Positions 1 to 43,893 are shown, numbered from the stretch's first letter. The stretch: DNA of 44,246 nt from a virus (IMGVR_UViG_3300045988_013393:1-44246), one strand, 5' to 3'. Numbers and translations are program-made. The notes: generated by a model from the sequence alone, not told the origin.

Positions 1-84
1 ACCTGTTACACCACCTGTTACACCACCTGTTACACCACCTGTTACACCACCTGTTACACCACCTGTTACACCACCTGTTACACC
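1..84. repeat. Tandem direct repeat, 12-bp unit ACCTGTTACACC, 7 copies; array continues at window end (44192-44246)
   Basis: Seven perfect head-to-tail copies at 1-84; same unit and phase family at the 3' end of the window, consistent with a circular/permuted assembly broken inside the array. Confidence 0.9.
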
Positions 85-216
85 AGCACGGTATTGCACA
101 CCAGCTTTCCACGCCCGCCACGCGAGACGCGTCTTAACGTTCAGGTACCCTTTCTTTGAACCTTTGTTAACCGGCAGACCCTCGACTACAGCCCACCGTT
201 CAAATGCTTCTCTCAT
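1..216 (-). CDS. N-terminal part of small (GVTG)n repeat protein (ORF runs off window start, resumes at window end)
   Basis: ATG at 216-214 preceded by GAGGA RBS; reads MREAFERWAVVEGLPVNKGSKKGYLNVKTRLAWRAWKAGVQYRA then in-frame GVTG repeats through the 12-bp array; no stop before position 1. Confidence 0.4.
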   Translation of the reverse strand, partial: MREAFERWAVVEGLPVNKGSKKGYLNVKTRLAWRAWKAGVQYRAGVTGGVTGGVTGGVTGGVTGGVTGGVTG

Positions 217-219
217 AAC

Positions 220-411
220 TTAGTCCTCATCATCTTCTAAGTCAGGGTACACTATGAAATCTCCAGGCCTTTGCAACTCAGCGCCAGCCATAAAATAACC
301 AAGTGCTTCGGCCCTTTCGGAATCTGTTTTAAACTCAGACAAAGGGTATCTTTCATAGAACTTGTTAATTAATAACGCCTGGTCAAACTTAGTCGCATCG
401 TAACCGCTCAT
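220..411 (-). CDS. Hypothetical small protein (63 aa), acidic C-terminus LEDDED
   Basis: ORF with ATG start; ATGA overlap with the upstream gene (translational coupling). Confidence 0.45.
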   Translation of the reverse strand: MSGYDATKFDQALLINKFYERYPLSEFKTDSERAEALGYFMAGAELQRPGDFIVYPDLEDDED

Positions 412-602
412 AACTCTACCCCATGGTGCTTAAGGAAACTGTTTAACTTGTACTCACGGTACTGTACGGACGCTTTAGCGCGAGCGACAAACCATGCCTT
501 TGAGGAAAAATATGGCGTACTCTCCCATGTATCGAGAGCTAATTTAGCGTTACTTAATCCGCGACGTAGACGCTCAAGGCGTAATTGGTTATACGGACTC
601 AT
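408..602 (-). CDS. Hypothetical small protein (64 aa)
   Basis: ATG start, ATGA-coupled to neighbours. Confidence 0.45.
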   Translation of the reverse strand: MSPYNQLRLERLRRGLSNAKLALDTWESTPYFSSKAWFVARAKASVQYREYKLNSFLKHHGVEL

Positions 603-871
603 ACCAACCCCATCTTCTCTTTAACGTGCACCCAAAACTCACCACAATACCAGCACCACATAAGATTAGGTGTCTCGCGCACCCAACCATAATCCTTTCG
701 GGCACGAATCGGAATAATGCCTTTAGTGAAATAATAACCCGTGCGCAGAAAATCAGGGTCGCGCGTCGCAGTGCGCCACATGTTATAAAACTGCTCCAGC
801 CCGGCACCCCGGCGCATGACCCGTATTTTATGGTTATATTCCGCTACTGTTTTCAGTTCAGTGTTATTCAT
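599..871 (-). CDS. Hypothetical protein (90 aa)
   Basis: ATG start, coupled to neighbours in the minus-strand small-gene array. Confidence 0.45.
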   Translation of the reverse strand: MNNTELKTVAEYNHKIRVMRRGAGLEQFYNMWRTATRDPDFLRTGYYFTKGIIPIRARKDYGWVRETPNLMWCWYCGEFWVHVKEKMGLV

Positions 872-1056
872 TTACGGCAACCTCCCTCAGAGTCGTCGGC
901 ACGAGCATCACGATTCGATGCCGTTCTCTCCCGCACTTCGACCATCCTTCCTACCTCTGCGGCGTAATACACATACAGCTTTATTGCGTAATCTTTATTA
1001 CTCGTGGTCTCTGTTATGGCTCCGTCTACGTATACGTCGTAAATTAATTCTTCCAT
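868..1056 (-). CDS. Hypothetical small protein (~62 aa)
   Basis: ORF track 868..1059; ATG at 1056-1054 overlaps the upstream stop. Confidence 0.4.
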   Translation of the reverse strand: MEELIYDVYVDGAITETTSNKDYAIKLYVYYAAEVGRMVEVRERTASNRDARADDSEGGCRK

Positions 1057-1238
1057 CACTTCGCCCCTTTGAATTTAAAATTGTTGCCGATGAGTTCCAT
1101 ATCCTGCGCGTATAAAACGGTGAGATACGACCCCGTTAAAGATTCAGCAAAATAGATATTATTTTCTTTGTGAAATGCGAATATGACCGCAAATTCTCCG
1201 GTCTCAGTAACCCGAACCAACTGACCCTTCTTAAACAT
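1056..1238 (-). CDS. Hypothetical small protein (~60 aa), first gene of minus-strand small-gene array
   Basis: ORF track 1056..1247 starts with GTG; ATG at 1238 has a GAGGAG RBS 8 nt upstream. Confidence 0.45.
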   Translation of the reverse strand: MFKKGQLVRVTETGEFAVIFAFHKENNIYFAESLTGSYLTVLYAQDMELIGNNFKFKGAK

Positions 1239-1272
1239 AACCCTCACTCCTCTGTCTCGTTTCGATAAGTGA

Positions 1273-1301
1273 ATAGTATCCTATTATGTTGGGGTGTGCA
1301 A
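1273..1301 (-). promoter_or_regulatory. Class B sigma70-like promoter (TTGCAC-N17-TACTAT) with embedded GAATAG-N4-CTATTA palindrome
   Basis: On minus strand TTGCAC (1301-1296), 17-bp spacer, TACTAT (1278-1273); ~60-bp element nearly identical to 22553-22581, 32481-32509 and 43865-43893. Confidence 0.5.
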
Positions 1302-1363
1302 GAGATTAGTTACGTTGCCGTTGTGATTCTTTAGGGAAGGTTGTGCCTTTATTCTTATTACTT

Positions 1364-1394
1364 GGTAACTAAAGGGCAGGCCTTAAGCCTGCCC
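1364..1394 (-). terminator. GC-rich stem-loop (GGGCAGGC-cttaa-GCCTGCCC), possible intrinsic terminator on minus strand
   Basis: 8-bp perfect stem; T-rich tract follows on minus strand (plus taactaaa 1366-1373). Confidence 0.3.
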
Positions 1395-1534
1395 AATAAT
1401 CGTTACATTTTTACGGTTGCGAATCTACGGCACATTAAGAAACAGTAGATATTTCAGCGGGTTACTTCTTTAAATGAGATTTAGATACACTTATCCTTAA
1501 ACCCCAAGGCAAGCATCTCAGTTGTCTGGGAGGG

Positions 1535-1566
1535 GTTGACGAATCCCTCGGGGAGGGTTCGTCAAC
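1535..1566. promoter_or_regulatory. Long imperfect palindrome GTTGACGAA(t)CCCT-cgggg-AGGGTTCGTCAAC in divergent non-coding region
   Basis: 13-bp arms with one bulge read directly from sequence; function unknown (operator, ori element or RNA structure). Confidence 0.3.
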
Positions 1567-1660
1567 TCCGTAATATATACAAGTCCCAAAACCATTATAC
1601 AAACATGTGTCAAGAACTTTCAATAACTTTTTTGTAAAGATTAAATATAGCAGGGATTGG

Positions 1661-1689
1661 TTGCTTTTACATCCCCGCTATCCTATACT
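1661..1689 (+). promoter_or_regulatory. Sigma70-like promoter (TTGCTT-N17-TATACT) for plus-strand early operon
   Basis: -35 at 1661-1666, -10 at 1684-1689, ~30 nt upstream of the first early gene RBS. Confidence 0.45.
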
Positions 1690-1720
1690 CAGCTCCACCA
1701 AACAAACAGGAGATATAAAA

Positions 1721-1903
1721 ATGCAACATTACATGACCCAGAATGAAGTAGCTGAGCGTATTGGGGTGACACGCCAGACAATTAATAACTGGTTGCGCAG
1801 TGGTAAATTCCCTGACTGCTGTATTAAAGTTATGGGTCGCCGTTTACCAGGAACATTTGACCGTAATAAAGTTGAAGCGTGGATTAAGGAGAATGTGAAA
1901 TGA
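1721..1903 (+). CDS. Small HTH DNA-binding protein (AlpA/excisionase-like fold suggested)
   Basis: ATG 1721 with AGGAGA RBS; sequence MQHYMTQNEVAERIGVTRQTINNWLRSGKFP is a classic helix-turn-helix; ORF track start at 1607 is likely too long. Confidence 0.55.
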   Translation: MQHYMTQNEVAERIGVTRQTINNWLRSGKFPDCCIKVMGRRLPGTFDRNKVEAWIKENVK

Positions 1904-2190
1904 AAGGTGTAATTTTCCACAATAAAGCAGAAAACGAAGTGTATATGGTTCACTCCGTGGTTGGAGAGTTCGCCCTATGCTTCAACATCTCTTGCCACCT
2001 TGATACCTACCGGCCTTTCTGCGTAGAAACAGAAATGAAGCTAATTAGCTTACGCCAGCTAAGCACCATGTCGGCGTCGCTTAACGTAAGAGATAATCTC
2101 GGGTATATCGACTTCTATTTCGGCGATGATTTGGTCGAGGAATATTTTGAAGAGTATAAAAATTTGCTGGAAGAGTTGGCTAAACGGTAA
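1900..2190 (+). CDS. Hypothetical protein (96 aa)
   Basis: ORF, ATGA-coupled to the upstream HTH gene. Confidence 0.45.
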   Translation: MKGVIFHNKAENEVYMVHSVVGEFALCFNISCHLDTYRPFCVETEMKLISLRQLSTMSASLNVRDNLGYIDFYFGDDLVEEYFEEYKNLLEELAKR

Positions 2191-2202
2191 AAAGAAACCC
2201 CA

Positions 2203-2388
2203 ATGCTAGAACGTCGGGGCCGAAGCACAAATCATCAAAGTAAGCACAAGGATTATACAATGACGAAGTTAATAGTTCCACAGTTGCGCCGCCAGAAACA
2301 CGGCGCTGATTTCTTCGCACCGGTAAAGATGAACCGCGCAATGCGTCGTATGCAGGAAGCCTTAGAACGCGCGGAGAAAAAGAAATGA
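2203..2388 (+). CDS. Hypothetical small basic protein (start uncertain, possibly 2260)
   Basis: ORF overlapping the primase start by ATGA; lysine/arginine-rich. Confidence 0.35.
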   Translation: MLERRGRSTNHQSKHKDYTMTKLIVPQLRRQKHGADFFAPVKMNRAMRRMQEALERAEKKK

Positions 2389-4592
2389 ATATTGTTTTTG
2401 CAACGCTGCGTAACACTTTCGATAAAAACCCGGTAGCCCGTGAAATGCCACTGGAGCAGTTTGTAGAGTATGTCTGCGATACATCGAAGCGCCTGTCCGT
2501 AGACCCGTCATGGACTAAGGAAGAGTACGACGCGGCCAAGATTAAGCAGAAAGCTATTGCGCCGGTTGGCGGTCGCCGTAAGAACGCGATTCTGGAAGAC
2601 AGTGTGGTTAAGTTCGATTTCGACCATCTAAACCGTACCCAGTACCGCGACCTCACCCGCAAATTCAAGAACGCGCCGTTCTTCAATATTCTGCACACAA
2701 CGGCGTCGCACCAGCACGCGTGTAAAAACGGTGACTACGCTTTCCGCGTTCTTGTACCGGCCCGCACGCCGTTTAACTCTAACGACGCGTGGATGGTGCA
2801 ACGTGCTATTTGTGCTGAGTTAGAAATAGACGAAGCATTGCGCGACCACTGCACAGAAGATGGCAACCGCCTTATCTACCTGCCGCATAAAGAGTCGAAG
2901 ATAACGGTTACAGAAGGGCGTGTTATCCGTGCCGAGCGGTACATCAAGAAAGCCGAAGAAATGGGGTTGCGTAAGCGTGAAGCTAAGACCCTTGCTGCCG
3001 ATGAGCATGGGCTTAACGCGGATATAGCGCATTTCTGCGAAGCGGAGCTTGGCCTTGACGCTTTATCTTCCGGTCGCGGGTACGAAGTGCCTTGCCCTAA
3101 CGAACACCTGCACACCGGCAAAGGCTCCACCAGCATCATGCTCGACGGTAAAGAAGTGCGCTTCGTGTGCCAGCACACAAACAACGGTGCTTGCACTGAG
3201 CTTAACCGCCGACAACATTTGGCCCTGCGTATGTGCGGCCTTCCGGACGAGCTTAACGTAGACAAGCAACCTATCAGTATTAACAGCATTCGTGCGGCTC
3301 TGCCTGATTTACCGGATGAAGAGATTGAAGAACTGCACCGCACAGAGAACGAGGAGCCTGTAACTTGTACACTGGAAGACCTTGAAGACGATGACGAGTT
3401 ACCTGAACCGGTAAAGGCTGATTTCGTCGTTGAAGGGTACATGCCGTCGGATTGCATCTGGGACATCGTCGGGGAATCCGGCACATATAAATCATTCTAT
3501 ACGCTGGGTATGATGTACCTGAGCGCCGCAGGGTACCGGTTTGCAGGCGCTGATACACAGCGTTGCCACCATTTCTATATTGACGGTGAGGGCGGTGCTG
3601 CCACACGCACCCGTATTGATGCACTCGCGGCTAAATACGGCGAGGAAGGTAAAGATTATGTACATGTCATCGATATGGGCGAAGTTGGCAAACTGAAAAG
3701 CCTGATTAAGCTAATGCGAGAAACTGCGGGTGGCGAACCCATCGGCATGGTCGCGTTCGATACTCTCAACCAGACACTGGCCCTGACGATTGATAAGTTC
3801 GACGAGAACAGTTCATCAACGGCAATCGGCATGGGTAAAGTTATCGCCATCCTTAAAGAAGTACGTGACGCAACTAAAGCCGCGGTGGGCGTCGTCCACC
3901 ATACACCGAAGGGCGGAAAGAAAGCCCGTGGCAGCGGGGCGCTGTATGCGGGTGTCGATGTGGAACTGACAATAGAACGTGCAACCGACCGTCAGATAAA
4001 CGTATACCACTCGAAATTTAAGCACGGGCCTCAACAGAAAACGGTTGGCATGGTGCTGGAGTCCGTACAGTTCCGTGAAGCGCCGCCGCCGAAAGAGTAC
4101 CGCGCGGTTGAGTTCCTGGGCAGCACAGAGGAATACGGCACAATCGTAAACCTCGACCTGCCGGAACCACACAAGGCGCTTGTTCTGATGCCGTGGGGCT
4201 TCGAGCCGTTCAAAACTGACGAGGAGAAAGAGCGGGAAGAAGGGTTAACTAACGAAGGTAAACAAAAAGTAAAGGAAGAAGTTAAACGCGGCAGGGATGA
4301 AGTAAGGAAGGAGTCGATACTTTCGGCACTGGAAGACCTGCAACAGTCAGATGACACAGGTCGCGGTTTTACTCAGCAGCAGATAGTGGCCCGTTCCGGT
4401 GACTTTTCTGTGACTAACACCCATCTTGATAAAATGCTGAAAGATGGTGAACTAATGCTAGGCTGTGATGCTAATGGCGAAGTAGTACCGAGAACGTATC
4501 GTATACCTGAAAGAATAGGGGATAGATTAAGGCCGAAGACAATATACGAACCGAATGAAATGCTAGTGGTTACTGAGGAAGATTTGGAATAG
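2385..4592 (+). CDS. Putative primase-polymerase / P-loop helicase replication protein (735 aa)
   Basis: N-terminal DxD (FDFDH) and H-rich (HTTASHQH) motifs suggest an AEP-like primase; Cys/His cluster CPNEHLH...CQH...C; Walker A GESGTYKS, Walker B MVAFD; acidic C-terminus ending EEDLE. Confidence 0.6.
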   Translation: MNIVFATLRNTFDKNPVAREMPLEQFVEYVCDTSKRLSVDPSWTKEEYDAAKIKQKAIAPVGGRRKNAILEDSVVKFDFDHLNRTQYRDLTRKFKNAPFFNILHTTASHQHACKNGDYAFRVLVPARTPFNSNDAWMVQRAICAELEIDEALRDHCTEDGNRLIYLPHKESKITVTEGRVIRAERYIKKAEEMGLRKREAKTLAADEHGLNADIAHFCEAELGLDALSSGRGYEVPCPNEHLHTGKGSTSIMLDGKEVRFVCQHTNNGACTELNRRQHLALRMCGLPDELNVDKQPISINSIRAALPDLPDEEIEELHRTENEEPVTCTLEDLEDDDELPEPVKADFVVEGYMPSDCIWDIVGESGTYKSFYTLGMMYLSAAGYRFAGADTQRCHHFYIDGEGGAATRTRIDALAAKYGEEGKDYVHVIDMGEVGKLKSLIKLMRETAGGEPIGMVAFDTLNQTLALTIDKFDENSSSTAIGMGKVIAILKEVRDATKAAVGVVHHTPKGGKKARGSGALYAGVDVELTIERATDRQINVYHSKFKHGPQQKTVGMVLESVQFREAPPPKEYRAVEFLGSTEEYGTIVNLDLPEPHKALVLMPWGFEPFKTDEEKEREEGLTNEGKQKVKEEVKRGRDEVRKESILSALEDLQQSDDTGRGFTQQQIVARSGDFSVTNTHLDKMLKDGELMLGCDANGEVVPRTYRIPERIGDRLRPKTIYEPNEMLVVTEEDLE

Positions 4593-4609
4593 GTAAAAAG
4601 AAAGGGGCG

Positions 4610-4825
4610 TTAAGCCCCTTCACCGAACGCCAGCCACTTGGCGTCTACTTCCAGCACTTCCGCCAGTTTAAACAGCGTCGCCGGGCGGACGTCCTGAGTC
4701 ACCCCAAGCGCAAGCTGGTTAATAGCGCCCTGGGAAACGCCCGCCAGAACAGCCAGACGGCGCTGGGAGATGCCGAGTTCTTTACGGCGTTGTTCTACAC
4801 GGATACCTAGTTCAGATGGTTGCAT
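4610..4825 (-). CDS. XRE-family HTH transcriptional regulator (Cro/CI-like, 71 aa)
   Basis: ISQRRLAVLAGVSQGAINQL helix-turn-helix; AAGGAG RBS; only minus-strand gene in the plus-strand early block, divergent from operator-containing promoters. Confidence 0.7.
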   Translation of the reverse strand: MQPSELGIRVEQRRKELGISQRRLAVLAGVSQGAINQLALGVTQDVRPATLFKLAEVLEVDAKWLAFGEGA

Positions 4826-4845
4826 GTCAATTACTCCTTAGTCAG

Positions 4846-4874
4846 TTGATATGTGAATAGTACCATATTAATTA
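4846..4874 (+). promoter_or_regulatory. Class A promoter, degenerate copy (TTGATA-N17-TAATTA) with GAATAG palindrome
   Basis: Upstream member of a tandem promoter pair between the XRE gene and ORF 4950. Confidence 0.4.
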
Positions 4875-4889
4875 TTTTAGAAAAGCCCA

Positions 4890-4918
4890 TTGACAAGTGA
4901 ATAGTTCGCTATTATAGT
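4890..4918 (+). promoter_or_regulatory. Class A sigma70 promoter (TTGACA-N17-TATAGT) with GAATAG-ttcg-CTATTA palindrome in spacer
   Basis: Consensus -35; same architecture at 7009 and 10777. Confidence 0.6.
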
Positions 4919-4949
4919 TAGCCTATACCAAACGAGAGGAGAGAAACAA

Positions 4950-5450
4950 ATGTTAGAACAGTTCTTAAAATTACTGGAGCGTTTCGTAGTTGCCCATGAA
5001 CTGATTGCGGCGAACAGTGCGAAACAAGTTGTTCATGCCGCCGCGCCGCTGGAAGTAGAGACGGTAGTGTATACCGAAGAATCAGCTTCCGAGTGCGAAG
5101 AAGAAACAACAAAAGAAATCACGGTTGAAGGTGAAGACGTCGTTGACACTAAACCTGCGGAGGAAGAGAAGCCGAAACGCAAGCCGCGTAAAGCTAAAGT
5201 AGAGGAACCAACGCCAGAGCCGGAAGAAGAGAAGGAAGAAGTCGATTACCAGTCTCTGCGTGACCAGATTCAGGCTATCGACGATGCAATTAACGAAGGC
5301 CCGAGCAATGCCGCGTGTGACGATTCGGATGAACTGCTAGAAGAGTTCACCGGCAAGAAGATGAAGATTGCCGCGATTAAAGACGAAGACCTGGCCGAGT
5401 ACCTGGAACGCCTGACGGCAATCAAGAACAAGTATTTCAAAGAAGAATAA
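4950..5450 (+). CDS. Highly acidic hypothetical protein (166 aa, Glu/Asp-rich)
   Basis: ORF with RBS; long acidic low-complexity segments (EEEKPKRKPRKAKVEEPTPEPEEEKEE). Confidence 0.5.
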   Translation: MLEQFLKLLERFVVAHELIAANSAKQVVHAAAPLEVETVVYTEESASECEEETTKEITVEGEDVVDTKPAEEEKPKRKPRKAKVEEPTPEPEEEKEEVDYQSLRDQIQAIDDAINEGPSNAACDDSDELLEEFTGKKMKIAAIKDEDLAEYLERLTAIKNKYFKEE

Positions 5451-5493
5451 CTATCTCGCGGCCTTCGGGCCGCTTTAACTGAGGGTCGGAATT

Positions 5494-5766
5494 ATGATTT
5501 ACCAACTCTACCGCGCCGTTGACAGGCGGGATAACATAGAGGCGTTATGGCTGTTGCGTGCGCCGTCCGGTGCACACCAGATGGAAGAGATGGCGTACTT
5601 AGGAAAAGTACCACGGCCTAAAGATATAGGCCGTCACGTGTCGCAGATTAAGCGCACGACTTTTGCCAAGCCTGACTTTTATGTCTTCGAGTCGATGTAT
5701 GGGTGGGCTATGCACTGCGACCATAAGACACGACATTTAATTGACCAGTGGGAGAGCAGGGTATGA
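5494..5766 (+). CDS. Hypothetical protein (90 aa)
   Basis: ORF, ATGA-coupled to the downstream nuclease gene. Confidence 0.45.
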   Translation: MIYQLYRAVDRRDNIEALWLLRAPSGAHQMEEMAYLGKVPRPKDIGRHVSQIKRTTFAKPDFYVFESMYGWAMHCDHKTRHLIDQWESRV

Positions 5767-7004
5767 TTCTAAAAGAACGCGGTGGCAATAACGACGTACA
5801 CGCATTACTGTCGCCATCCGGTGCTAAAAAGTGGCTTACCTGCGCCGCATCGCTGGCCTGTGAAAAAGACATTCCAAATACGTCAGGTAAAGCCGCCGTA
5901 TTGGGTACCGCCATGCACACCATAGCTGAGATGCACTTAAACCAGTACATCAAAGGCACTGCGCTGCCGTTAGAGCGTGAAGTCGGCGCTTACGTGCTGG
6001 ATGAAGGTAAAGGCCAGATTAAGGCGCTAATCAGCCCGATGAAAGGCGCGGTACTGATTACGGCGGATATGATTGAGCAAGTGCGCAAGTATACCGACTA
6101 CTGCAAAGCGATTATCGATGTAGCGACTTACGCCAAGCTGGAAATGCGGGTAAATCTTACCGAGGTATTGCATCCGGGCTACGAAGGCGTTGAGACATTC
6201 GGAACCGCTGACCTTGTTGCCGTTCAGGAACTGGCGAACACCGAAGAGCACATGCTCATTATTGGCGACCTGAAAACAGGACGGCATCGTGTCGAAGCGA
6301 AAGAAAACAAGCAGCTTATGCTTTACGCGCTGGGTGTTTATCGCCGACTAAAGCGACGTTATAGCATAACAACCGTTCGTCTGGTCATCTTCCAGCCTTA
6401 CGCTGGGGGCGCGTCAGAGTGGGACATCTCGGTTGAGGGCCTTGAACTGTTCGCTAAGTTTGCGCAGAAACGCGCGCTGTTGGCCCTTGATGCTTATTCC
6501 CGCGGCAAGAAGAACCTGAAAGCGTCGGACTTCAAGCCGTCTGTCGATGGTTGTCAGTGGTGTCGGTTCTCTGAACAATGCGCTGCGCGTACAAAAACCG
6601 TTAACTCGGTACTGGCGGAAGAACTGGAAGACGATTTTGCGCTGGAACTTACGCCGGAGCAACTCGTAGCTGAGTATGAGAAGTTGCCGTTGTTGCGCCA
6701 GCACATCGACAAGGTTGAGAAAGCTATGGCCGCCGCGTTGCATTCCGGTAAGAAAGTGCCAGGGTACAAACTGGTTGAAGGTCGTCCTGGTAATCGTGCG
6801 TGGAAAGATGCGGAGAAAGTAGCAGAACTCTACGGCGACAAGCTGACTAAAGAAGTGCTCATGTCACCTACCGAAGCTGTTAAAGTCATACCGGAAGAAG
6901 AACTGAAAGACTTCATTACCCGTAAGCCCGGCGCGCCATGCGTCACAACGGCGGATGACAAACGTCCTGAGTGGAATCAGGTTAGTGAAGAAGATTTGGA
7001 ATAA
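5763..7004 (+). CDS. PD-(D/E)XK exonuclease, Cas4/RecB-like with Fe-S cysteine cluster
   Basis: N-terminal Cys (WLTCAAS), D...DLK motif (ADLVAV...IGDLKTG), QxxxY (QLMLYALG), CQWCRFSEQC cluster; C-terminus ends SEEDLE. Confidence 0.65.
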   Translation: MILKERGGNNDVHALLSPSGAKKWLTCAASLACEKDIPNTSGKAAVLGTAMHTIAEMHLNQYIKGTALPLEREVGAYVLDEGKGQIKALISPMKGAVLITADMIEQVRKYTDYCKAIIDVATYAKLEMRVNLTEVLHPGYEGVETFGTADLVAVQELANTEEHMLIIGDLKTGRHRVEAKENKQLMLYALGVYRRLKRRYSITTVRLVIFQPYAGGASEWDISVEGLELFAKFAQKRALLALDAYSRGKKNLKASDFKPSVDGCQWCRFSEQCAARTKTVNSVLAEELEDDFALELTPEQLVAEYEKLPLLRQHIDKVEKAMAAALHSGKKVPGYKLVEGRPGNRAWKDAEKVAELYGDKLTKEVLMSPTEAVKVIPEEELKDFITRKPGAPCVTTADDKRPEWNQVSEEDLE

Positions 7005-7008
7005 AGTG

Positions 7009-7037
7009 TTGACACCTGAATAGTTAGCTATTATATT
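7009..7037 (+). promoter_or_regulatory. Class A sigma70 promoter (TTGACA-N17-TATATT) with GAATAG-ttag-CTATTA palindrome
   Basis: Consensus -35/-10 spacing, upstream of the SSB-like gene. Confidence 0.6.
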
Positions 7038-7093
7038 TCTAATCACTGGCCGGGCAGCTTCCCGGAGTAAACTGAAAACTGAGGAATCGAGAT

Positions 7094-7720
7094 ATGGGTA
7101 TTAAACTGAATCTGCGTAAAGTAAACACTGCATGGGTTAACGTATTTGAACGCGAAAAAGACCGTGAAAACGATGACGGCTCAATCACTAAAGGCCAGTA
7201 CAGCGCAACGATTATCATGCCGCCGGACCATGCTCAAATCGACGCGCTCTACGACACTGTTTACGCTGTAGTCGAAGAAGCATTGGGTGCCGCCGCTGCC
7301 GAAAAATGGATGAAGTCTAACTACGGCGAAGGTAAGCACATGGATAAATGTGCGATTAAAGATATTGCTGAGCGCGACAATCCGTTTGAAGACTTCCCGG
7401 AAGGCTTCTACTTCAAAGCGAAGGCTCAGAAACAGCCACTGATTGTAACCTCTAAAAAAGGTGAGACTCAGGTAGAACAGGACTTCAACGTAGACGGCGA
7501 ACAGATTGAAGGGGAACAGGTTTACAGCGGCTGCGTTGCTAACGTAAGCGTCGAAATCTGGTTCAGCCAGAAATACAAAGTCCTCGGCGTCAATCTGCTG
7601 GCGATTAAATACGTTGGTGAAGGTAAAGCGTTTGGTGGTTCTAAAGTTGCTGCGAGCGTCGATGACCTGGAAGACGACGAAGAAGACGAAGCACCGCGCC
7701 GCGAACGTCGCCGCCGCTAA
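7094..7720 (+). CDS. Putative ssDNA-binding protein (208 aa) with acidic-then-basic C-terminal tail
   Basis: Position between nuclease and DNA polymerase; C-terminus DDLEDDEEDEAPRRERRRR; assignment by context and composition only. Confidence 0.4.
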   Translation: MGIKLNLRKVNTAWVNVFEREKDRENDDGSITKGQYSATIIMPPDHAQIDALYDTVYAVVEEALGAAAAEKWMKSNYGEGKHMDKCAIKDIAERDNPFEDFPEGFYFKAKAQKQPLIVTSKKGETQVEQDFNVDGEQIEGEQVYSGCVANVSVEIWFSQKYKVLGVNLLAIKYVGEGKAFGGSKVAASVDDLEDDEEDEAPRRERRRR

Positions 7721-7740
7721 TATCTGAATCAATTTAACTA

Positions 7741-7762
7741 GGGCCCTTCATTGGGCCTTTTT
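7741..7762 (+). terminator. Intrinsic terminator (GGGCCC-ttcatt-GGGCC + TTTTT)
   Basis: GC stem followed by T5 immediately after the SSB-like gene stop. Confidence 0.6.
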
Positions 7763-7781
7763 ACTAAGGGTCGAAAATAAT

Positions 7782-9980
7782 ATGCCTAATCTATTGTATC
7801 TGGATACTGAGACATTCTCTGAAGCGGACTTAAAGAAAGTCGGATCGTATGCGTACGCGGAGCATCCGACAACCGAGATTATAATTTGTACATATGCCAT
7901 TGATGATGGGCCCGTAGAAGTATGGGATTGCACTTCCGAACCGGTAATGCCAATAAGCCTCCGCATTGCGCTGCGCAATGTTATGCGCGGACGTATGAGA
8001 ATTGTAGGTCATAACTTTTTAATGTTCGACAGGCTTGTTATGAAGCACTGCTGGGGCGTTGATATCAAGCCAAGAAACACCATTGACACGATGATTAGAG
8101 CGTTTCGTCACGCGTTGCCGGGTTCACTTGACGCATTGTGCGAAGTGCTGGGCGTATCTGCGGACAACGCGAAAGACAAACGCGGTAAAGCACTGATTCA
8201 GCGTTTTTCTAAACCGACGCCGAAGAACTACAAAATCCGCCGTTACACCGCCGAAACTCACCCAGATGAGTGGGCGCTGTTCATCAAGTACGCCGTGAGC
8301 GACATCACTGCGATGCGTGAAGTCTTCCATAAGCTGCCGCGTTGGGGTAACTCCGAGTTCGAAGACCGTGTACTGGAACTTGACCAGTTAATCAACGACC
8401 GCGGGTTTAAGGTTGATGTGGCGCTGGCGGAAGCTGCGATTGAGGCCGTAGAGAAACACAAGGCGCAGTTGCAGGAAGAAGCCCAACGCAAATACGGCGG
8501 CTCGCTAACTGGCAAAGACTTTCTACCTATTCTGCGGGAACTGGCCCCCGCGCACCGTATTCATAACGCGCAGAAGTCGACACTCAATGACCTGCTGGCG
8601 GATGATGATTTGCCAGATGACGCCCGCACGATTATCGAAATGCGCCTCGGGGCCGCGTCTACAGCATCGACGAAATATAACCCGCTGCTGCTGGGTCGCT
8701 CGTCGGACGACCGTCGTCGCGGTTGCTTGCAGTACGGCGGGGCAAAACGCACTTTGCGATGGGCGGGTAAAGGCTTCCAGCCGCAGAACCTGGCGCGCGG
8801 GTACTATCACGATGATGAACTGGATAAAGGCATTTCAGCGTTACTTAAGGGCCGTGCGCATCGCCGTTTTGATGTGGCCAAGCTAACGGCATCTACGGTT
8901 CGTAGCTGCATTATCCCGGAAGCCGGGCATAAGTTTGTCGTCGCCGATTACTCTAACGTTGAGGGTCGTGGGCTTGCGTGGCTGGCGGGCGAAGAAACCG
9001 CGCTCGATACGTTCCGCGCCGGACTGGATATTTACTGCGTAACCGCGGGCAAGATGTTTGGTATGGACCCTGATGACATTAAGAAAAACTTCAAGGAAAT
9101 CAGACAGATAGGCAAAGCATGCGAACTGGGTCTCGGCTACGAGGGCGGCGTCGGAGCGTTCGTTACGTTCGCCAAAAACTTAGGCCTCGACCTTATTGAG
9201 ATGGCAAAAACAATGGACGGGACTTTCCCCGACCACATCTGGGCTGCTACCGCACGTGGGTATGAGTGGGCGCGTATTCAGGAAGCCAAGCGACCACCGC
9301 ATCCCGGTGAAAAGGATGACCGACCATCATATATTCTGGACAAGAAAGTGTGGCGCACATGTGATGCAATCAAGCGTATGTGGCGCGAGTCACACCCGGA
9401 AACAGTAGCGTTCTGGCGCGACCTTAAAGATGGAATTTTAGCCGCTGTTCGTAATCCTGGTCGTGAATTTTGGGCCGGGGCACACTTGCGCCGGAATGGT
9501 GAAAGGGCTATCCGCATATGGCGTACCGTAGAATTTGATTCGTCGGGCAGGAAGGTTCCTGGCTGGTGGTTGTGTATGGAGTTGCCGTCAGGCCGTATCC
9601 TCTCGTATCCGGGAATCGGCGTTAGTGTGACAAAGGAAACAGACGAAGACGGACGGGTAAACACGAATGTGCGAATCAAGTATCAGGGTGAAAACCAGTT
9701 AACCCGCCAATGGACTACCCTGTACACCCACGGCGGCAAAGCCTGCGAAAACATTGTTCAGGCGCTGTGCCGTGATTTACTCGCATATGCGATGATTAAT
9801 GTTGAGGGTGGCGGGTATCCCATCGTGCTTTCGGTACACGATGAACTGGTGTGTGAAACTCCGGATACCCCAGAGTACACGGTGGCCGAACTGGAAAAAT
9901 TAATGTGTTCTCTGCCTGAGTGGGCAGAAGGCTTCCCTCTTGTCGCGGAAGGTGCGGAGATGAAGCGCTATGCTAAGTAA
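7782..9980 (+). CDS. DNA polymerase, family A, with 3'-5' exonuclease domain
   Basis: Exo I motif LYLDTETFS; polymerase motif A VVADYSNVEGR; motif C LSVHDELV. Confidence 0.85.
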   Translation: MPNLLYLDTETFSEADLKKVGSYAYAEHPTTEIIICTYAIDDGPVEVWDCTSEPVMPISLRIALRNVMRGRMRIVGHNFLMFDRLVMKHCWGVDIKPRNTIDTMIRAFRHALPGSLDALCEVLGVSADNAKDKRGKALIQRFSKPTPKNYKIRRYTAETHPDEWALFIKYAVSDITAMREVFHKLPRWGNSEFEDRVLELDQLINDRGFKVDVALAEAAIEAVEKHKAQLQEEAQRKYGGSLTGKDFLPILRELAPAHRIHNAQKSTLNDLLADDDLPDDARTIIEMRLGAASTASTKYNPLLLGRSSDDRRRGCLQYGGAKRTLRWAGKGFQPQNLARGYYHDDELDKGISALLKGRAHRRFDVAKLTASTVRSCIIPEAGHKFVVADYSNVEGRGLAWLAGEETALDTFRAGLDIYCVTAGKMFGMDPDDIKKNFKEIRQIGKACELGLGYEGGVGAFVTFAKNLGLDLIEMAKTMDGTFPDHIWAATARGYEWARIQEAKRPPHPGEKDDRPSYILDKKVWRTCDAIKRMWRESHPETVAFWRDLKDGILAAVRNPGREFWAGAHLRRNGERAIRIWRTVEFDSSGRKVPGWWLCMELPSGRILSYPGIGVSVTKETDEDGRVNTNVRIKYQGENQLTRQWTTLYTHGGKACENIVQALCRDLLAYAMINVEGGGYPIVLSVHDELVCETPDTPEYTVAELEKLMCSLPEWAEGFPLVAEGAEMKRYAK

Positions 9981-10101
9981 ACTGATTATCGCGGTACTGG
10001 CGGGATTTGCCGCCGGTGTCTACTGTCACGAGGGCCAATACGGCATGATTGTCGCCGTATTATGCATGTTTATCGCAATTTATCTGTGGGTGCTGGAATG
10101 A
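9970..10101 (+). CDS. Small hydrophobic membrane peptide (43 aa)
   Basis: ATG overlapping the polymerase stop; MLSKLIIAVLAGFAAGVY...IAIYLWVLE; below the ORF-track size cutoff. Confidence 0.3.
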   Translation: MLSKLIIAVLAGFAAGVYCHEGQYGMIVAVLCMFIAIYLWVLE

Positions 10102-10187
10102 AAATTTACTGGTTATACGAAGAAGACTGTCGAATCTGTCCGCGTTGCGGGATTGAGCATACGAAACGTGAGGGGTGTGTATTATGA
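10098..10187 (+). CDS. Tiny Cys-rich ORF (29 aa, CxxCxRC, zinc-ribbon-like)
   Basis: ATGA-coupled on both sides; MKIYWLYEEDCRICPRCGIEHTKREGCVL. Confidence 0.25.
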   Translation: MKIYWLYEEDCRICPRCGIEHTKREGCVL

Positions 10188-10378
10188 GTAACAAACCATT
10201 TAGTAAGAAACTAGCCGCGTTAGTGGATATGCCGGAATGGGAATTTATCATGGTAATGGGAGATGGGTTCTTTAGTGACGTTTGTGCCGGGTGTACGCAC
10301 AAAGGCGTTTACTATTCGGAACACGACATCTATCAAGCGTACTTCCTGCGTAACCCAGATGCGGAGCCGTTGTTATGA
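10184..10378 (+). CDS. Hypothetical protein (64 aa)
   Basis: ATG 10184 overlapping the upstream stop; ORF track 10175..10378. Confidence 0.4.
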   Translation: MSNKPFSKKLAALVDMPEWEFIMVMGDGFFSDVCAGCTHKGVYYSEHDIYQAYFLRNPDAEPLL

Positions 10379-10527
10379 CGATGTTTGTATTTTGGTCGAT
10401 AGTAACCATGCTCGCGCTGTTACTCAGTGCGGGAATAGCTTCGATGTTCTATTATGGCCTGTTCTTTAAGTTTGTTGGTGTTGCCGTTCTCGGCGGGGCT
10501 TTCATCACCTGGATTCTGCGCTCATGA
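10375..10527 (+). CDS. Small membrane protein (50 aa)
   Basis: ATGA-coupled; two hydrophobic segments. Confidence 0.3.
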   Translation: MTMFVFWSIVTMLALLLSAGIASMFYYGLFFKFVGVAVLGGAFITWILRS

Positions 10528-10808
10528 CCCCGGAGGGCAAGATTCAGAAATACGCAAAAGAGCGATTCGAGGCCCTGGGGGGCCTCGTACGCAAATTGTC
10601 GTACGAAAATAGAGTGGGCGCTCCTGACCTGCTGGTAATTCTCCCCGGCGGCATCGTATGGTTCGTCGAGGTTAAGAAAGACGAAAATACGAAGCCTGAC
10701 CTGCACCAGTTACGAGAGCACGAGCGGATGCGTAAACGTGGTGCAAATATTTTTGTCGTCGGGTCGTTCAAACAGGTTGACGACCTAATAGCGAACTATT
10801 ATAGTTAG
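10524..10808 (+). CDS. VRR-NUC domain nuclease (PD-(D/E)XK)
   Basis: GAPDLLVILPGGIVWFVEVKK matches the VRR-NUC signature; sits upstream of an SNF2 helicase, a common phage pairing. Confidence 0.65.
   Translation: MTPEGKIQKYAKERFEALGGLVRKLSYENRVGAPDLLVILPGGIVWFVEVKKDENTKPDLHQLREHERMRKRGANIFVVGSFKQVDDLIANYYS
10777..10805 (+). promoter_or_regulatory. Class A promoter (TTGACG-N17-TATAGT) with perfect TAATAG-cgaa-CTATTA palindrome
   Basis: Lies inside the 3' end of the VRR-NUC gene, upstream of gene 10839. Confidence 0.5.
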
Positions 10809-10838
10809 TCCTACACCAACAATATAAGGAATTTAGAA

Positions 10839-11033
10839 ATGAAACATGAATACGACCGCAAACCAGCACGTGACATCGTACCGGGCGACATGATTTTCAA
10901 CGTTAAGACCCGTCGTCCTGTTGCCGTTGATACAGTGTTCGTCGAGTCGAACGGTAAACTGGTCATCGAAGATGTAACCGGTAACGTTACGGCGTTTGGG
11001 CGGAAGGAATTGGTACTCTACGTTAAGGGTTGA
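10839..11033 (+). CDS. Hypothetical small protein (64 aa)
   Basis: ORF with RBS AAGGAA; DIVPGDMIF motif resembles small ORF 40137-40301 (DLVPGDVLF). Confidence 0.45.
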   Translation: MKHEYDRKPARDIVPGDMIFNVKTRRPVAVDTVFVESNGKLVIEDVTGNVTAFGRKELVLYVKG

Positions 11034-12460
11034 TTATGTCTAAATTTATCCGTCGAGAGTACCAGAAGCTCATGACTTCGTTCATGCTGCAACACCCGCG
11101 CTGTAATATTTGGGCCTCGATGGGCGCGGGCAAAAGTTCCGCAACGATGTGGGTTCTAAACCGCCTGTTCCGCAACGGGCAGCTTACGGAAGAGGACCGC
11201 GTGTTAATCCTCGCCCCGTTACGTGTTGCATCCGGTACGTGGCCCGCAGAACAAACTAAGTGGGGTTTCCCTTGTCTGAGTGTCGTCGATGCGACCGGTA
11301 GCGAGAGGCGCCGCATCGCGGCGCTGGAGTCGGACGCTAACGTGGTATGCACCAACTACGAAGTTATCGAGTGGCTGATTGACTACTACGGCAAAGACGA
11401 CTGGCCTTTTACGGTTATCGTTGCCGATGAGAGCACGAAACTGAAATCATTCCGCAGTCGTTCAGGCGGCAGCAAGCGGGCAAAGGCGCTTAGCAAGGTT
11501 GCGTTCGGTAAGGTCAAGCGTTTTATAAACCTGACGGGAACGCCATCACCTAACGGCCTCAAAGACTTGTGGGGCCAGAACTGGTTTATCGACGCTGGCG
11601 AGCGCCTCGGCTCATCGTACACGGCATTCACCGACCGCTGGTTCAACTCGGTACAGAAAGGCAAATCGGCTATGGCGCGCGAATACCACGCTCGCCCTGG
11701 TGCGGATAATGAAATTCACCAGAAGATGAAAGACATCAGCCTGACGATTGACGCCGCCGAGTGGTTTGGTTGCGAAGCGCCGATTATTGTACCGGTTGAA
11801 ATTGACCTGCCGAAGAAAGCACGTCAGGCGTACATCGATATGGAGGAAAAGTTATTCGCGGAACTGGAGAGCGGAGAAGTTGAAGCGGCTAACGCGGCTG
11901 CGAAGACATCTAAGTGTTTGCAGATTGCGTCCGGTGCCGTGTATGTATCAGGGCCAGATGGCGAAGCAACGAAAGACTGGGAGAAAGTGCATGACACGAA
12001 GCTGGACGCGCTGGAGTCCATTGTTGAAGAGTTGCAGGGTGCGCCGTTACTGGTGGCCTATCAGTTCAAGCATGAACTGGAGCGCATCCTTAAGAGATTC
12101 CCACAAGCCCAGGCGTTTGCCAAAGGGGCCAAGGGTAATAAGCAGATGGAAGCGTGGAACCGCGGTGAAATCGAGATTTTGTGCGTGCATCCCGCATCAG
12201 CCGGCCATGGTTTGAATTTACAGGACGGCGGCCATCATCTGGCGTTCATCTCGCAAGGCTGGAACCTTGAGCACTATTTGCAGGTCGTGGAGCGTATAGG
12301 TCCGGTCCGCCAGAAACAGGCAGGCCACGAACGACCGGTGTTCCTTTATCACATCGTTGCTAAAGACACGCTGGACGAGGTTGTTGCCGCGCGTACCGAC
12401 GAGAAGAAAACGGTGCAGGAAGAGTTGCTTAATTACATGAAGAGACGAGGTAAGAAATGA
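11030..12460 (+). CDS. SNF2/DEAD-like superfamily 2 helicase
   Basis: Walker A MGAGKSS, DExx box VADEST, C-terminal helicase domain. Confidence 0.7.
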   Translation: MIMSKFIRREYQKLMTSFMLQHPRCNIWASMGAGKSSATMWVLNRLFRNGQLTEEDRVLILAPLRVASGTWPAEQTKWGFPCLSVVDATGSERRRIAALESDANVVCTNYEVIEWLIDYYGKDDWPFTVIVADESTKLKSFRSRSGGSKRAKALSKVAFGKVKRFINLTGTPSPNGLKDLWGQNWFIDAGERLGSSYTAFTDRWFNSVQKGKSAMAREYHARPGADNEIHQKMKDISLTIDAAEWFGCEAPIIVPVEIDLPKKARQAYIDMEEKLFAELESGEVEAANAAAKTSKCLQIASGAVYVSGPDGEATKDWEKVHDTKLDALESIVEELQGAPLLVAYQFKHELERILKRFPQAQAFAKGAKGNKQMEAWNRGEIEILCVHPASAGHGLNLQDGGHHLAFISQGWNLEHYLQVVERIGPVRQKQAGHERPVFLYHIVAKDTLDEVVAARTDEKKTVQEELLNYMKRRGKK

Positions 12461-12642
12461 AGCTTAATGTTGGAGACGAAATATACAGCGTACATTCATT
12501 CAATACTTTCACAATCGAGTACATATCAAAAGACGGCAACAGCTTTGTTTTGGTAAGCTCAGACGGTAAGTACGAAAATTCACGATGCTACACACTGCCG
12601 GATATAAAGCGCAGTTTCAAGAAAAGCGAAGGTAAGAAATGA
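12457..12642 (+). CDS. Hypothetical small protein (61 aa)
   Basis: ORF, ATGA-coupled. Confidence 0.4.
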   Translation: MKLNVGDEIYSVHSFNTFTIEYISKDGNSFVLVSSDGKYENSRCYTLPDIKRSFKKSEGKK

Positions 12643-12776
12643 ACGTCATAGCCCCGATCCCCGCATTGCAAAAACGTATCAAGGAACTCGAAGAAGAGGT
12701 TCTACGACTACGACAGCAAAGAGACGCCGCTAATGCGCAACTGGCGTTTGTACTGGAGAAGTTATCCGAAGATTAG
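12639..12776 (+). CDS. Small coiled-coil protein (45 aa)
   Basis: ATG overlapping the upstream stop; IKELEEEVLRLRQQRDAANAQL heptad-like; below ORF-track cutoff. Confidence 0.3.
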   Translation: MNVIAPIPALQKRIKELEEEVLRLRQQRDAANAQLAFVLEKLSED

Positions 12777-12780
12777 AGAA

Positions 12781-12807
12781 AAGGCCCCGATTGGGGCCTT
12801 AGTTTTA
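12781..12807. terminator. Bidirectional intrinsic terminator (AAGGCCCC-gatt-GGGGCCTT)
   Basis: Between convergent early plus operon and minus-strand tailspike gene; same stem reused at 25211, 33063 and 35545. Confidence 0.65.
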
Positions 12808-14799: not shown

Positions 14800-14811
14800 A
14801 TAGAGTCCTCT

Positions 14812-18235: not shown

Positions 18236-18238
18236 AAA

Positions 18239-19330: not shown

Positions 19331-19333
19331 TGG

Positions 19334-22552: not shown

Positions 22553-22581
22553 TTGCGCACCCCAACATAATAGGATACTAT
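22553..22581 (+). promoter_or_regulatory. Class B promoter (TTGCGC-N17-TACTAT) driving plus-strand accessory island
   Basis: Near-identical to the element at 1273-1301; conserved leader ttaactcaaacaggag before ATG 22623. Confidence 0.5.
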
Positions 22582-22622
22582 TCACTTACACCAACAATGT
22601 TAACTCAAACAGGAGCTACACC

Positions 22623-22814
22623 ATGACAGGTATTACTATGTTCTTCTTAATCATTATCGTTTTAGTTTATTTTATCCCGTTTTTAGTGGCCCATATGCGC
22701 GGACATAAAGCGAAACTGGCGATATTCATGGCTAATCTGTTTCTCGGCTGGGTTCTGCTGCCGTGGGTATTTATTTTAATCTGGGCTTGCAACTCGAATG
22801 TCAAAGAGAAGTGA
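22623..22814 (+). CDS. Small membrane protein, superinfection-immunity (Imm)-like
   Basis: 63 aa, two TM segments; YFIPFLVAHMRGHKAKLAIFMANLFLGWVLLPWV...IWAC resembles the Imm-family signature as recalled from memory; AGGAG RBS. Confidence 0.5.
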   Translation: MTGITMFFLIIIVLVYFIPFLVAHMRGHKAKLAIFMANLFLGWVLLPWVFILIWACNSNVKEK

Positions 22815-22852
22815 GCTAGTATAGGACAAATCCTAAACACGAGGAAGTAAGC

Positions 22853-32161: not shown

Positions 32162-32412
32162 GTTTCCCCTTTCTCGATAAGTAAAGCCCCGCCTTAAAGC
32201 GGGGCGCTAGTCCTTATCATTTAAACATAGAAACGGCGTAATCTCAGTAAACCAGTTACTTTTTACACAAGCAATAGAGTATGGCCCTTCCGAACGCGTC
32301 AGCGTAACTACACTCAGGACTTACGTCCCGCTCCGTTACCTGCCCGCGCCGCGGTCGCTTGCTCATACTTCACAAGCTCAGGTGGAGCTTATCATATTTT
32401 CAGTGAAAAGTC

Positions 32413-32458
32413 AACTATTCGAATAGTTTATTCCAACGTTTACAATTGAGTGGAATAA
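32413..32458. promoter_or_regulatory. Perfect 16-bp palindrome AACTATTCGAATAGTT plus inverted repeat TTATTCCA-N15-TGGAATAA
   Basis: Read directly; contains CTATTC/GAATAG half-sites; lies just upstream of a class B promoter. Confidence 0.4.
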
Positions 32459-32480: not shown

Positions 32481-32509
32481 TTGCGCGCACCAACATAATA
32501 GGGTACTAT
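32481..32509 (+). promoter_or_regulatory. Class B promoter (TTGCGC-N17-TACTAT) driving plus-strand moron 32537
   Basis: Same conserved element and leader (ttaacttaaacaggag) as at 22553. Confidence 0.5.
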
Positions 32510-32536
32510 TCAGTTAACTTAAACAGGAGATGATAA

Positions 32537-40546: not shown

Positions 40547-40628
40547 TTCTCTCTACTCCGTTCTCGTTGTCGATGGAGTAAATATAATAGGGTCGAAGGT
40601 AATAGTCAACTAGTCATTGCGGAAAATA

Positions 40629-43833: not shown

Positions 43834-43864
43834 ATCCTGTCTCTCCTCTCGTTTGTGTAAATGA

Positions 43865-43893
43865 ATAGTAGCCTATTCTATCTTAGTGTGCAA
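43865..43893 (-). promoter_or_regulatory. Class B promoter (TTGCAC-N17-TACTAT) with perfect GAATAG-gcta-CTATTC palindrome
   Basis: Aligns with the element at 1273-1301 including the downstream leader; drives the minus-strand small-gene array towards the lysis cassette. Confidence 0.5.

Follow-up and report, generated by a model that had tools for sequence, protein, structure and literature searches.

A predicted 434-Cro-like repressor and its candidate 14-bp operator at promoters of a Kagunavirus genome

The window analysed here, a stretch of 44,246 bp of viral DNA, contains a 14-bp palindrome, in its fuller form (G/T)AATAG-N4-CTATT(C/A), which overlaps the spacer or the -10 hexamer at eight promoters, and a gene for a small Cro-like protein that we refer to as XRE. 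As a candidate mechanism, to which we give a probability of roughly 0.6, we propose that this 434-Cro-like repressor would occlude at least eight promoters and weakly repress its own synthesis. A sequence-only reading of the same DNA had likened the arrangement to a repressor/operator switch. A temporal or autoregulated repressor indeed fits all the sequence evidence, and lysogeny does not, but the predicted regulon is about twice the size then listed and includes a second promoter class.

Genomic setting and the XRE gene

Positions 4300-5500 find matches in 430 phage records, and the best of them are Escherichia phages of the genus Kagunavirus (Guernseyvirinae) at 92-94% identity. Examples of these best records are fBC-Eco01, which is in this identity range over the XRE locus, HSE2 and the BASEL isolates Bas70-76. 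The length of the window agrees with the 41-45 kb genomes of Kagunavirus relatives, and we take it to be a complete Kagunavirus genome, because a leftward early operon apparently crosses its ends. The replication genes are on the plus strand (about 1700-12460) and nearly all else is on the minus strand, where two small plus-strand islands, at about 22600-25040 and 32537-33058, break the minus-strand region. The large open reading frames encode a primase-helicase, PolA, an SNF2 helicase and structural proteins. Neither in the annotated genome of fBC-Eco01 nor in the large window ORFs that were scanned did we find an integrase, an excision module or a second, CI-type repressor, in line with the earlier statement that the phage has no integrase. 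A phage RNA polymerase gene was likewise absent from fBC-Eco01, from the gene and Pfam tables of the contig and from the large window ORFs. Rfam and tRNA scans gave no matches.

The XRE locus comprises the following features:

4610..4825, minus strand: XRE (434-Cro-like) gene, 71 aa, single HTH_3 domain
4601..4621: hairpin terminator where the primase-helicase and XRE genes converge; an 8-pair stem, then a run of T on the minus strand

The sequence-only reading had described a Cro/CI-like HTH protein as the sole minus-strand gene of the early plus-strand block, and both parts of that description stand. The protein matches Pfam HTH_3 with 47.2 bits (gathering cut-off 23, E=2.3e-12, residues 11-65), and by synteny with the fBC-Eco01 annotation, which also places a terminator at the position equivalent to 4601..4621, no CDS of the replication block other than XRE runs on the opposite strand. 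Of the three HTH proteins compared with Pfam, XRE alone is a full-length HTH_3; the HTH_17 protein gives a partial HTH_3 match of 25 residues. The best relative of solved structure is 434 Cro, also of 71 aa (E=5e-7, XRE residues 6-68). The AF2 model of XRE has five helices (pLDDT 80), and with this model Foldseek returned the 434 repressor, 434 Cro, SinR-N and P22 c2 with probability 1.00 and TM scores of 0.72-0.80, 434 Cro being among the top fold matches, at 38-41% identity, and the identity to the 434 proteins taken together being 36-41%. Restriction-modification (R-M) controller proteins are also close fold matches. The divergent neighbour, at 4950-5450, belongs to phrog_3127, a family of unknown function.

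A palindrome built into promoters

Exact copies of AATAG-N4-CTATT number seven in the whole genome, against about 0.035 expected under a first-order Markov model, and ten copies (1.05 expected) are found when up to one mismatch is allowed; at spacings from 0 to 8, this is the commonest 5-mer dyad in the genome. The genome-wide motif count proposed with the sequence-only reading was carried out with a position weight matrix (PWM) trained only on other genomes, and it returned seven strong sites at 22-26 bits and three weak ones at 11-16 bits. No further site in the window exceeds 5.5 bits, and dinucleotide shuffles average 4.75 such sites; the difference (0 observed, 4.75 expected) hints that stray operator-like sites are avoided in the rest of the genome. 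All the sites, both the exact ones and the three near-copies, are located at promoters, and all seven exact ones lie 25-45 nt 5' of a ribosome binding site and ATG, in register with -35 and -10 hexamers. The 14-bp dyad thus has invariant arms of 5 bp, a variable 4-bp centre and an overlap with promoters, as do operators of the 434 type. The earlier list of sites was right about 4890, 7009 and 10777, but it had missed four exact sites (1272, 22569, 32497 and 43864) and the near-site at 40601.

The promoters and sites concerned are:

4890..4918, plus strand: type A promoter P4890, TTGACA-17-TATAGT, 11/12, with operator GAATAGTTCGCTATTA at 4899-4914
7009..7037, plus strand: type A promoter P7009, operator at 7018-7033; Enc34-type SSB gene and DNA polymerase (PolA)
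10777..10805, plus strand: type A promoter P10777, operator at 10786-10801; small gene and SNF2 helicase
1271..1301, minus strand: type B promoter, TTGCAC-17-TACTAT; operator TAATAGGATACTATTC covers the -10
43863..43893, minus strand: type B promoter with the fully symmetric operator GAATAGGCTACTATTC; small-gene and lysis operon
22553..22583, plus strand: type B promoter, TTGCGC-17-TACTAT, operator present; feeds a plus-strand island
32481..32511, plus strand: type B promoter, operator present; 173-aa gene at 32537-33058
4856..4869, no strand assigned: O_xre, a weakened operator, AATAGTACCATATT, with one mismatch; PWM 14.6 bits against 22-26 for full sites
32406..32419, no strand assigned: AAAAGTCAACTATT, a site with one mismatch, overlapping the -35 of the spanin promoter (minus strand, 32414-32386); 16.0 bits
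40601..40614, no strand assigned: one-mismatch site overlapping the -35 of the minus-strand promoter 40609-40581; 11.3 bits

In type A promoters, the dyad fills the spacer between the -35 and -10 hexamers up to position -12, and its right half overlaps -12/-11. The three promoters of this type contain (G/T)AATAG-N4-CTATTA, ending at -11, have a 17-bp spacer and match the sigma-70 consensus at 10-11 of 12 positions; they are three of the top four sigma-70-like matches in bases 1-20000. P4890, with the operator GAATAG-TTCG-CTATTA, transcribes the genes at 4950-7004 (unknown genes and a DUF2800 / PD-(D/E)XK nuclease), and P7009 and P10777 are near-copies of it. The class A promoter with a palindrome in its 17-bp spacer at 4890-4918, and the recurrence of this architecture at 7009-7037 and 10777-10805, had been recognized from the sequence alone.

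Type B promoters have the form TTGC(G/A)C-17-TACTAT, and here the dyad covers the -10. Compared with sigma-70 hexamers, TTGCRC matches at 3/6 and TACTAT at 4/6 positions, 17 bp apart, which is below the threshold of the promoter scan; the elements are conserved and correctly placed before genes, and we regard them as candidate sigma-70 promoters. Two of the four type B sites fire leftward into small early genes, and two rightward into the plus-strand islands. The one at 1271..1301 serves the leftward operon of small early genes from 1247 down to 220 and coincides with the PHIRE 'phage promoter6' annotated in fBC-Eco01. The island behind 22553..22583 holds an imm-like gene at 22623, a metallophosphatase (phosphoesterase) and a PNKP-like phosphatase. 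Between types A and B, the dyad shifts its register by 6 bp and reverses its orientation with respect to the -10, and therefore it looks like a module separate from recognition by RNA polymerase.

Beside the XRE gene, tandem plus-strand promoters had been claimed, at 4846-4874 and 4890-4918. This claim was not borne out for the first of the two. Its plus-strand reading is weak: the -10, TAATTA, matches at 2/6 positions, the best reading in the scan reaches 9/12, the -35, TTGATA, is not conserved in Jerseyvirus, and the dyad has one mismatch. The stretch is better read as the leftward promoter of XRE with a weakened operator. O_xre overlaps this minus-strand promoter, whose extended -10, TGgTACTAT at 4865-4857, lies 31 nt 5' of the XRE start codon, and it is the single mismatch in O_xre that supplies the TG of this element. 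At the homologous place, Jerseyvirus reads TTGCGT-17-TACTAT. From the minus-strand reading and the Jerseyvirus parallel, P_xre and P4890 would therefore be divergent promoters; the dyads of O_xre and P4890 are 44 bp apart. Of the other two near-copies, the site at 32406..32419 is possibly a weak operator. The one at 40601..40614 is conserved in loci L080-L083, and its promoter, 40609-40581, retains just the CTATTATATT half.

Further palindromes with the same half-sites had been reported in clusters at 31545-31590 and 32413-32458, next to the spanin and scaffold genes. The clusters exist, but they consist of a different motif, namely GGAATA hexamers and GAATA-N3-TATTC dyads. Genome-wide, GGAATA occurs 34 times where 20 are expected, with 8 of these copies inside 31553-32466. 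Only two elements in the clusters resemble the operator: the 14-bp site at 32406, with its one mismatch, and a single everted CTATTC|GAATAG pair. In GAATA-N3-TATTC the arms are 3 bp closer, which we judged incompatible with the same dimer geometry, and the clusters were therefore rejected as XRE operators. The copy of this dyad at 31798 coincides with the start codon of the MNKLF... reading frame, which we read as the start of the o-spanin gene with its signal peptide.

Conservation and the identity of the binding protein

We examined the gap between XRE and P4890 in 32 distinct Kagunavirus sequences, aligned without conditioning. In P4890, the -35 and both half-sites are invariant and the -10 has a single variant at one base, whereas the centre of the palindrome is variable and the 3-4 nt that separate the -35 from the dyad are hypervariable, differing in more than 9 of the 32 sequences and varying in length. 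O_xre is essentially invariant, with one variant each at two positions. Across 59 type A sites from 33 Kagunavirus loci, there are at least 12 variants of the upstream spacer and 10 of the centre. This pattern is evidence that the dyad is a selected site, a candidate for protein binding.

Which protein would bind it was addressed by comparison. Where XRE is 79-100% identical to the one in the window and its recognition helix is unchanged, the phages carry matching sites, and the choice of G or T at the sixth position follows the same pattern. In Jerseyvirus Ent1, where XRE is 51% identical, the core is kept and the site is always TAATAG...CTATTA; the recognition helix reads SQSLITH there and SQGAINQ here, a difference of three residues. 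The two genera differ by G or T at position 6, which counts as one phylogenetic event. In SE1-like Guernseyvirinae, XRE is 40% identical, its gene heads the primase operon, the HTH_17 gene is absent, and the equivalent promoter positions carry a diverged ATTAG-N4-GTATT that is not a true dyad. Among distant IMG/VR homologues of XRE (loci L053-L079) none has the dyad, which shows only that the dyad and this type of XRE co-occur in the same phage lineages. Taken together, the comparative data weakly favour XRE as the predicted binder of the dyad.

The structure of the 434 complexes gives a rationalisation of the predicted contact. Operators of 434 are 14 bp long, with 5-bp arms of the ACAAG type around a 4-bp centre (ACAAG-N4-CTTGT-like); Gln28 contacts A1, and Gln29 reads positions 2-3. 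In XRE, the equivalents of Gln28 (Gln32) and of Gln17 (Gln21) are invariant in three lineages, so that the glutamine reading A1 is conserved, and the equivalent of Gln29 is Gly (Ser in Jerseyvirus). The match of glutamines and arms would make structural sense of an XRE-dyad complex by analogy.

Alternative explanations

The dyad could be the true operator of some other protein, such as the immediate-early HTH_17 protein (1721-1903), the NinH-like protein (minus strand, about 39.1 kb) or a host factor common to E. coli and Salmonella, and XRE would then have a different target or just its own promoter. XRE diverges strongly between Kagunavirus and Jerseyvirus and the core does not, while HTH_17 keeps about 82% identity from one genus to the other, in parallel with the conserved core; since XRE is only 51% identical over an unchanged core, conservation alone does not single it out. 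The promoter of HTH_17 (1661-1689) has no dyad, as expected of a regulator expressed first, and by gene order HTH_17 is apparently the 'early' HTH gene 008 of phage K1B4 (PMC12645636). Against this, SE1-like phages have motif-bearing promoters yet no HTH_17 homologue, and the conservation of NinH is higher in SE1 (73%) than in Ent1 (62%), although the motif has diverged further in SE1. The HTH_17 protein is moreover of the excisionase type, a kind that as a rule binds direct repeats in the form of monomers or filaments rather than 14-bp dyads. We know of no global regulator of E. coli with an AATAG-N4-CTATT consensus. Of the three HTH proteins for which Pfam was consulted, XRE alone is of the Cro/CI type, the fBC-Eco01 annotation holds no further HTH gene, and the XRE gene directly adjoins two dyad sites. 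The HTH_17 and NinH-like proteins are thus less likely binders than XRE, and a binder other than XRE seems to us rather unlikely. A different explanation dispenses with a repressor: the 20-bp element would be a phage-specific promoter for a possibly phage-modified RNA polymerase, or would have been copied along with duplicated promoters. It is in this sense that the element was published, as seven PHIRE 'phage promoters' each in fBC-Eco01 (PMC9825357) and Golestan (PMC7203180). That the right half of the dyad reaches over -12/-11 in type A promoters and makes up the -10 in those of type B agrees with a plain promoter element, and so does the lone half at promoter 40609. However, the annotated relative and the large ORFs lack a gene for a phage RNA polymerase, near-consensus promoters free of the dyad occur in the same genome, and dyad symmetry itself has no role in recognition by RNA polymerase. 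The left half-site is situated in the part of the spacer that sigma-70 is not expected to read, yet it is invariant amid varying neighbours, and the shift of 6 bp and change of orientation between the two promoter classes likewise speak against this explanation, which we hold to be improbable.

The names given to the gene suggest a third explanation, in which XRE would serve immunity, as a lysogeny repressor, in a phage that is temperate or has been so until recently. Records often name the gene 'transcriptional repressor', 'Cro' or 'CI-like', and among its homologues are Cro and CI proteins from temperate phages, with identities of 35-41%. But the 71-aa protein is a single domain, without a C-terminal oligomerisation domain or an S24 peptidase domain, the integrase, excision module and second repressor are absent from fBC-Eco01 and the large ORFs, and Kagunavirus is described as lytic (PMC9825357; also the BASEL paper). 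We conclude that XRE is not an immunity or lysogeny repressor, and we attach next to no weight to this explanation.

Predicted regulatory scheme

In the scheme that we favour, the 434-Cro-like XRE would bind as a dimer to the 14-bp (G/T)AATAG-N4-CTATT(C/A) dyad, which appears to be built into two kinds of promoters for host RNA polymerase. Given that the dyad is in the spacer of type A promoters and over the -10 of type B, a bound dimer would block RNA polymerase at the eight promoters. The operator-bearing units would include two leftward operons of small early genes, three plus-strand units of replication and recombination (from P4890, P7009 and P10777), two plus-strand islands inside the structural region, and XRE itself via its weakened site. 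As XRE accumulates, it would turn early and middle transcription down while the operator-free late units go on, and it would limit its own synthesis at high concentration only. What the analysis shows directly is the gene, its fold family, the sites, their placement in promoters and their selective conservation; binding of XRE to the sites and the direction and timing of regulation are inferred. We also considered that XRE might activate, and think it unlikely, since all the sites intrude on the spacer or the -10.

Promoters without the dyad are near-consensus and coexist in the genome with those that bear it:

1661-1689, plus strand: dyad-free promoter ahead of HTH_17 and primase
1623, minus strand: dyad-free strong promoter, which with a terminator at 1394-1374 brackets a structured non-coding transcript of about 220 nt
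40952, 40731 and 40609, minus strand: dyad-free promoters ahead of the NinH-terminase-portal block
32414, minus strand: dyad-free promoter ahead of the spanin, scaffold and capsid genes

The promoters at 40952, 40731, 40609 and 32414 together precede the genes for packaging, head and tail. The split between dyad-bearing and dyad-free promoters fits a Cro-like turn-down of early and middle units with the late units left on. A broader picture may be drawn from it, tentatively: a strictly virulent siphophage whose temporal programme would be run by one Cro-like repressor with no CI, which would shut off all early, replication and accessory units (eight promoters or more) through one 14-bp operator in two promoter architectures, with the HTH_17-primase and late units operator-free and stray sites purged. 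It is conceivable, though we would not yet count on it, that this set of one repressor and many promoters is minimal, portable and conserved across Kagunavirus and Jerseyvirus.

One published RNA-seq time course is available, for phage K1B4, in which imm and DNA polymerase are placed in the 'late' class and gene 004, which we take by gene order to be XRE, in the 'middle' class (PMC12645636). These classes count against the scheme, imm and DNA polymerase being predicted here to be operator-controlled, and they derive from sampling to 120 min against a latent period of 30 min (PMC12645636), which runs far past the latent period and is therefore too coarse to assign temporal classes. Phage PTXU04, known from a CRISPRi-ART fitness screen, was considered as a Kagunavirus and rejected, as its 92 CDS and its 2198-aa polyvalent protein do not fit; the screen was accordingly left out of account.

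Kagunavirus and Jerseyvirus phages are among the most often isolated candidates for therapy and biocontrol of E. coli and Salmonella, and a gene labelled 'transcriptional repressor' may look like a flag for lysogeny in the safety screening of phages. Reading the product as a Cro-like temporal regulator, with neither CI nor integrase, would remove that concern. Published annotations credit the repeat to a phage RNA polymerase that the phages do not encode, a record that the present reading would correct. The map of operator-bearing and operator-free promoters tells which units are likely to be co-regulated and should be useful for annotation and engineering, and since these small genomes are attractive for synthetic biology, a compact repressor-promoter set may be on offer.

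Comparison with known systems

The repeat itself is already published, and a small HTH repressor occluding promoters is a textbook mechanism. In fBC-Eco01, the seven PHIRE 'phage promoters', with the consensus tgAATAGTa-ccTATTat-T, were assigned to a phage RNA polymerase (PMC9825357), and seven were likewise reported in VB_EcoS-Golestan (PMC7203180). This 20-bp element is the one found here, and it occupies the same places in the genome; the PHIRE features in the GenBank record of fBC-Eco01 coincide with our sites. Those papers treat the element as a promoter for a phage RNA polymerase and do not note the dyad, the two classes or the link to XRE. In a literature search of incomplete coverage, we found no mention of dyad symmetry, two promoter classes, a split between operator-bearing and operator-free promoters or a link to XRE, and no published experiments on the XRE regulator; the papers that it returned on Jerseyvirinae, Jerseyvirus and Kagunavirus were descriptive genome papers.

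Many copies of one short site recognized by one repressor are known from phage P1 (C1), mycobacteriophage L5 (the 'stoperators' of gp71) and phiC31 (the CIR sites of the c repressor). As in our window, the scattered sites are at or near promoters. However, those proteins are immunity repressors of temperate phages and the L5 and P1 sites are asymmetric, whereas our phage is virulent and has dyads, placed within its promoters. The lambdoid immunity switch has a CI-type repressor with a C-terminal domain, divergent from cro, and an integrase, an arrangement that differs from the one found here. The controller proteins of R-M systems (C.AhdI, C.BclI) are, like XRE, small single-domain HTH_3 proteins, and they act as dimers on promoter dyads. 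Genes for C proteins neighbour R-M genes, and the proteins activate from a position adjoining the -35; there are no R-M genes by XRE in fBC-Eco01, and the sites described here overlap the spacer or the -10, where repression is expected.

In function, our proposal has a parallel in lambda Cro, a small early repressor with operators over early promoters and a weaker site at its own promoter, under which early transcription declines. Lambda Cro has a different fold from XRE, and the regulon predicted here also covers replication, recombination and moron-like units, with neither an antitermination cascade nor a competing CI evident. In structure, the parallel is 434 Cro, which like XRE has 71 aa and a single HTH_3 domain and is its best sequence match among solved structures and one of its top fold matches. 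The 434 operator shares with the dyad its length of 14 bp, the 5-bp arms with A, A and G at positions 1, 4 and 5, and the variable 4-bp centre; it differs at arm positions 2-3, which are CA there and AT here, the positions at which XRE has Gly or Ser as the equivalent of Gln29. There is here no CI partner, tripartite OR or lysogeny, and while the 434 sites are confined to two control regions, the sites of the proposed XRE regulon are spread over at least eight promoters throughout the genome.

Operator-like sequences and the first gene under P4890

When the whole window was scanned with the operator position weight matrix, which was trained on other genomes, nothing scored above 5.5 bits beyond the ten promoter-associated sites. 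Because dinucleotide shuffles contained on average 4.75 operator-like sites above 5.5 bits, where the window has no extra ones, the base sequence suggests selection against stray operators. The operator-bearing promoter P4890 (4890-4918, plus strand) drives as its first gene:

4950-5450, plus strand, gene for a 166-aa product

This protein is very acidic, and is matched over its full length by phrog_3127.

Leader hairpins and GGAATA repeats

Hairpins were found in two leaders:

7050-7065, hairpin CCGGGCAGCTTCCCGG in the 5' leader from P7009 (7009-7037, plus strand) to the gene of the Enc34-type ssDNA-binding protein
31487-31544, minus strand, TTGACA followed by hairpin CCGGGTGGCCCGG in the scaffold gene leader

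The former is conserved, being also present in the Jerseyvirus Ent1 and in Salmonella phage SE1, and may serve translational autoregulation or be an RNA-processing site. Conservation of the scaffold-leader element likewise reaches SE1; its TTGACA and hairpin are accompanied by neither a recognisable -10 nor a T run, and it might serve as a site of processing or as an atypical promoter.

The hexamer GGAATA is clustered at 31553-31589 and 32429-32466; of its 34 copies in the genome, 8 fall within 31553-32466. Three direct repeats on the minus strand, spaced by 10 and 21 bp, lie directly upstream of the scaffold gene, and three further copies flank the spanin promoter. The element is kept in part in Ent1 and in SE1. 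The array resembles a set of binding sites for another regulator, possibly one acting on late genes.

An ORF-poor transcript

A 430-bp non-coding gap, with the early operon on one side and the HTH_17-primase operon on the other, contains:

1623-1594, minus strand, promoter with near-consensus TTGAAA-18-TATAAT
1394-1374, minus strand, strong terminator

Within 1366-1623 on the minus strand, these two bracket an ORF-poor transcript of about 220 nt. The fold predicted for this region has an energy of -72 kcal/mol (z=-4.8), and an Rfam scan gave no match for the transcript. It may represent a small RNA of the phage or else belong to the replication origin.

Comparison with SE1-like Guernseyvirinae

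In SE1-like Guernseyvirinae the HTH_17 gene is absent and an XRE-like gene heads the primase operon. At the promoter positions of the Kagunavirus dyad (AATAG-N4-CTATT), these phages carry the non-palindromic ATTAG-N4-GTATT:

Salmonella phage SE1 (L004), about 3081, 3782, 7098, 32106 and 33576, SE1-like arrangement with ATTAG-N4-GTATT
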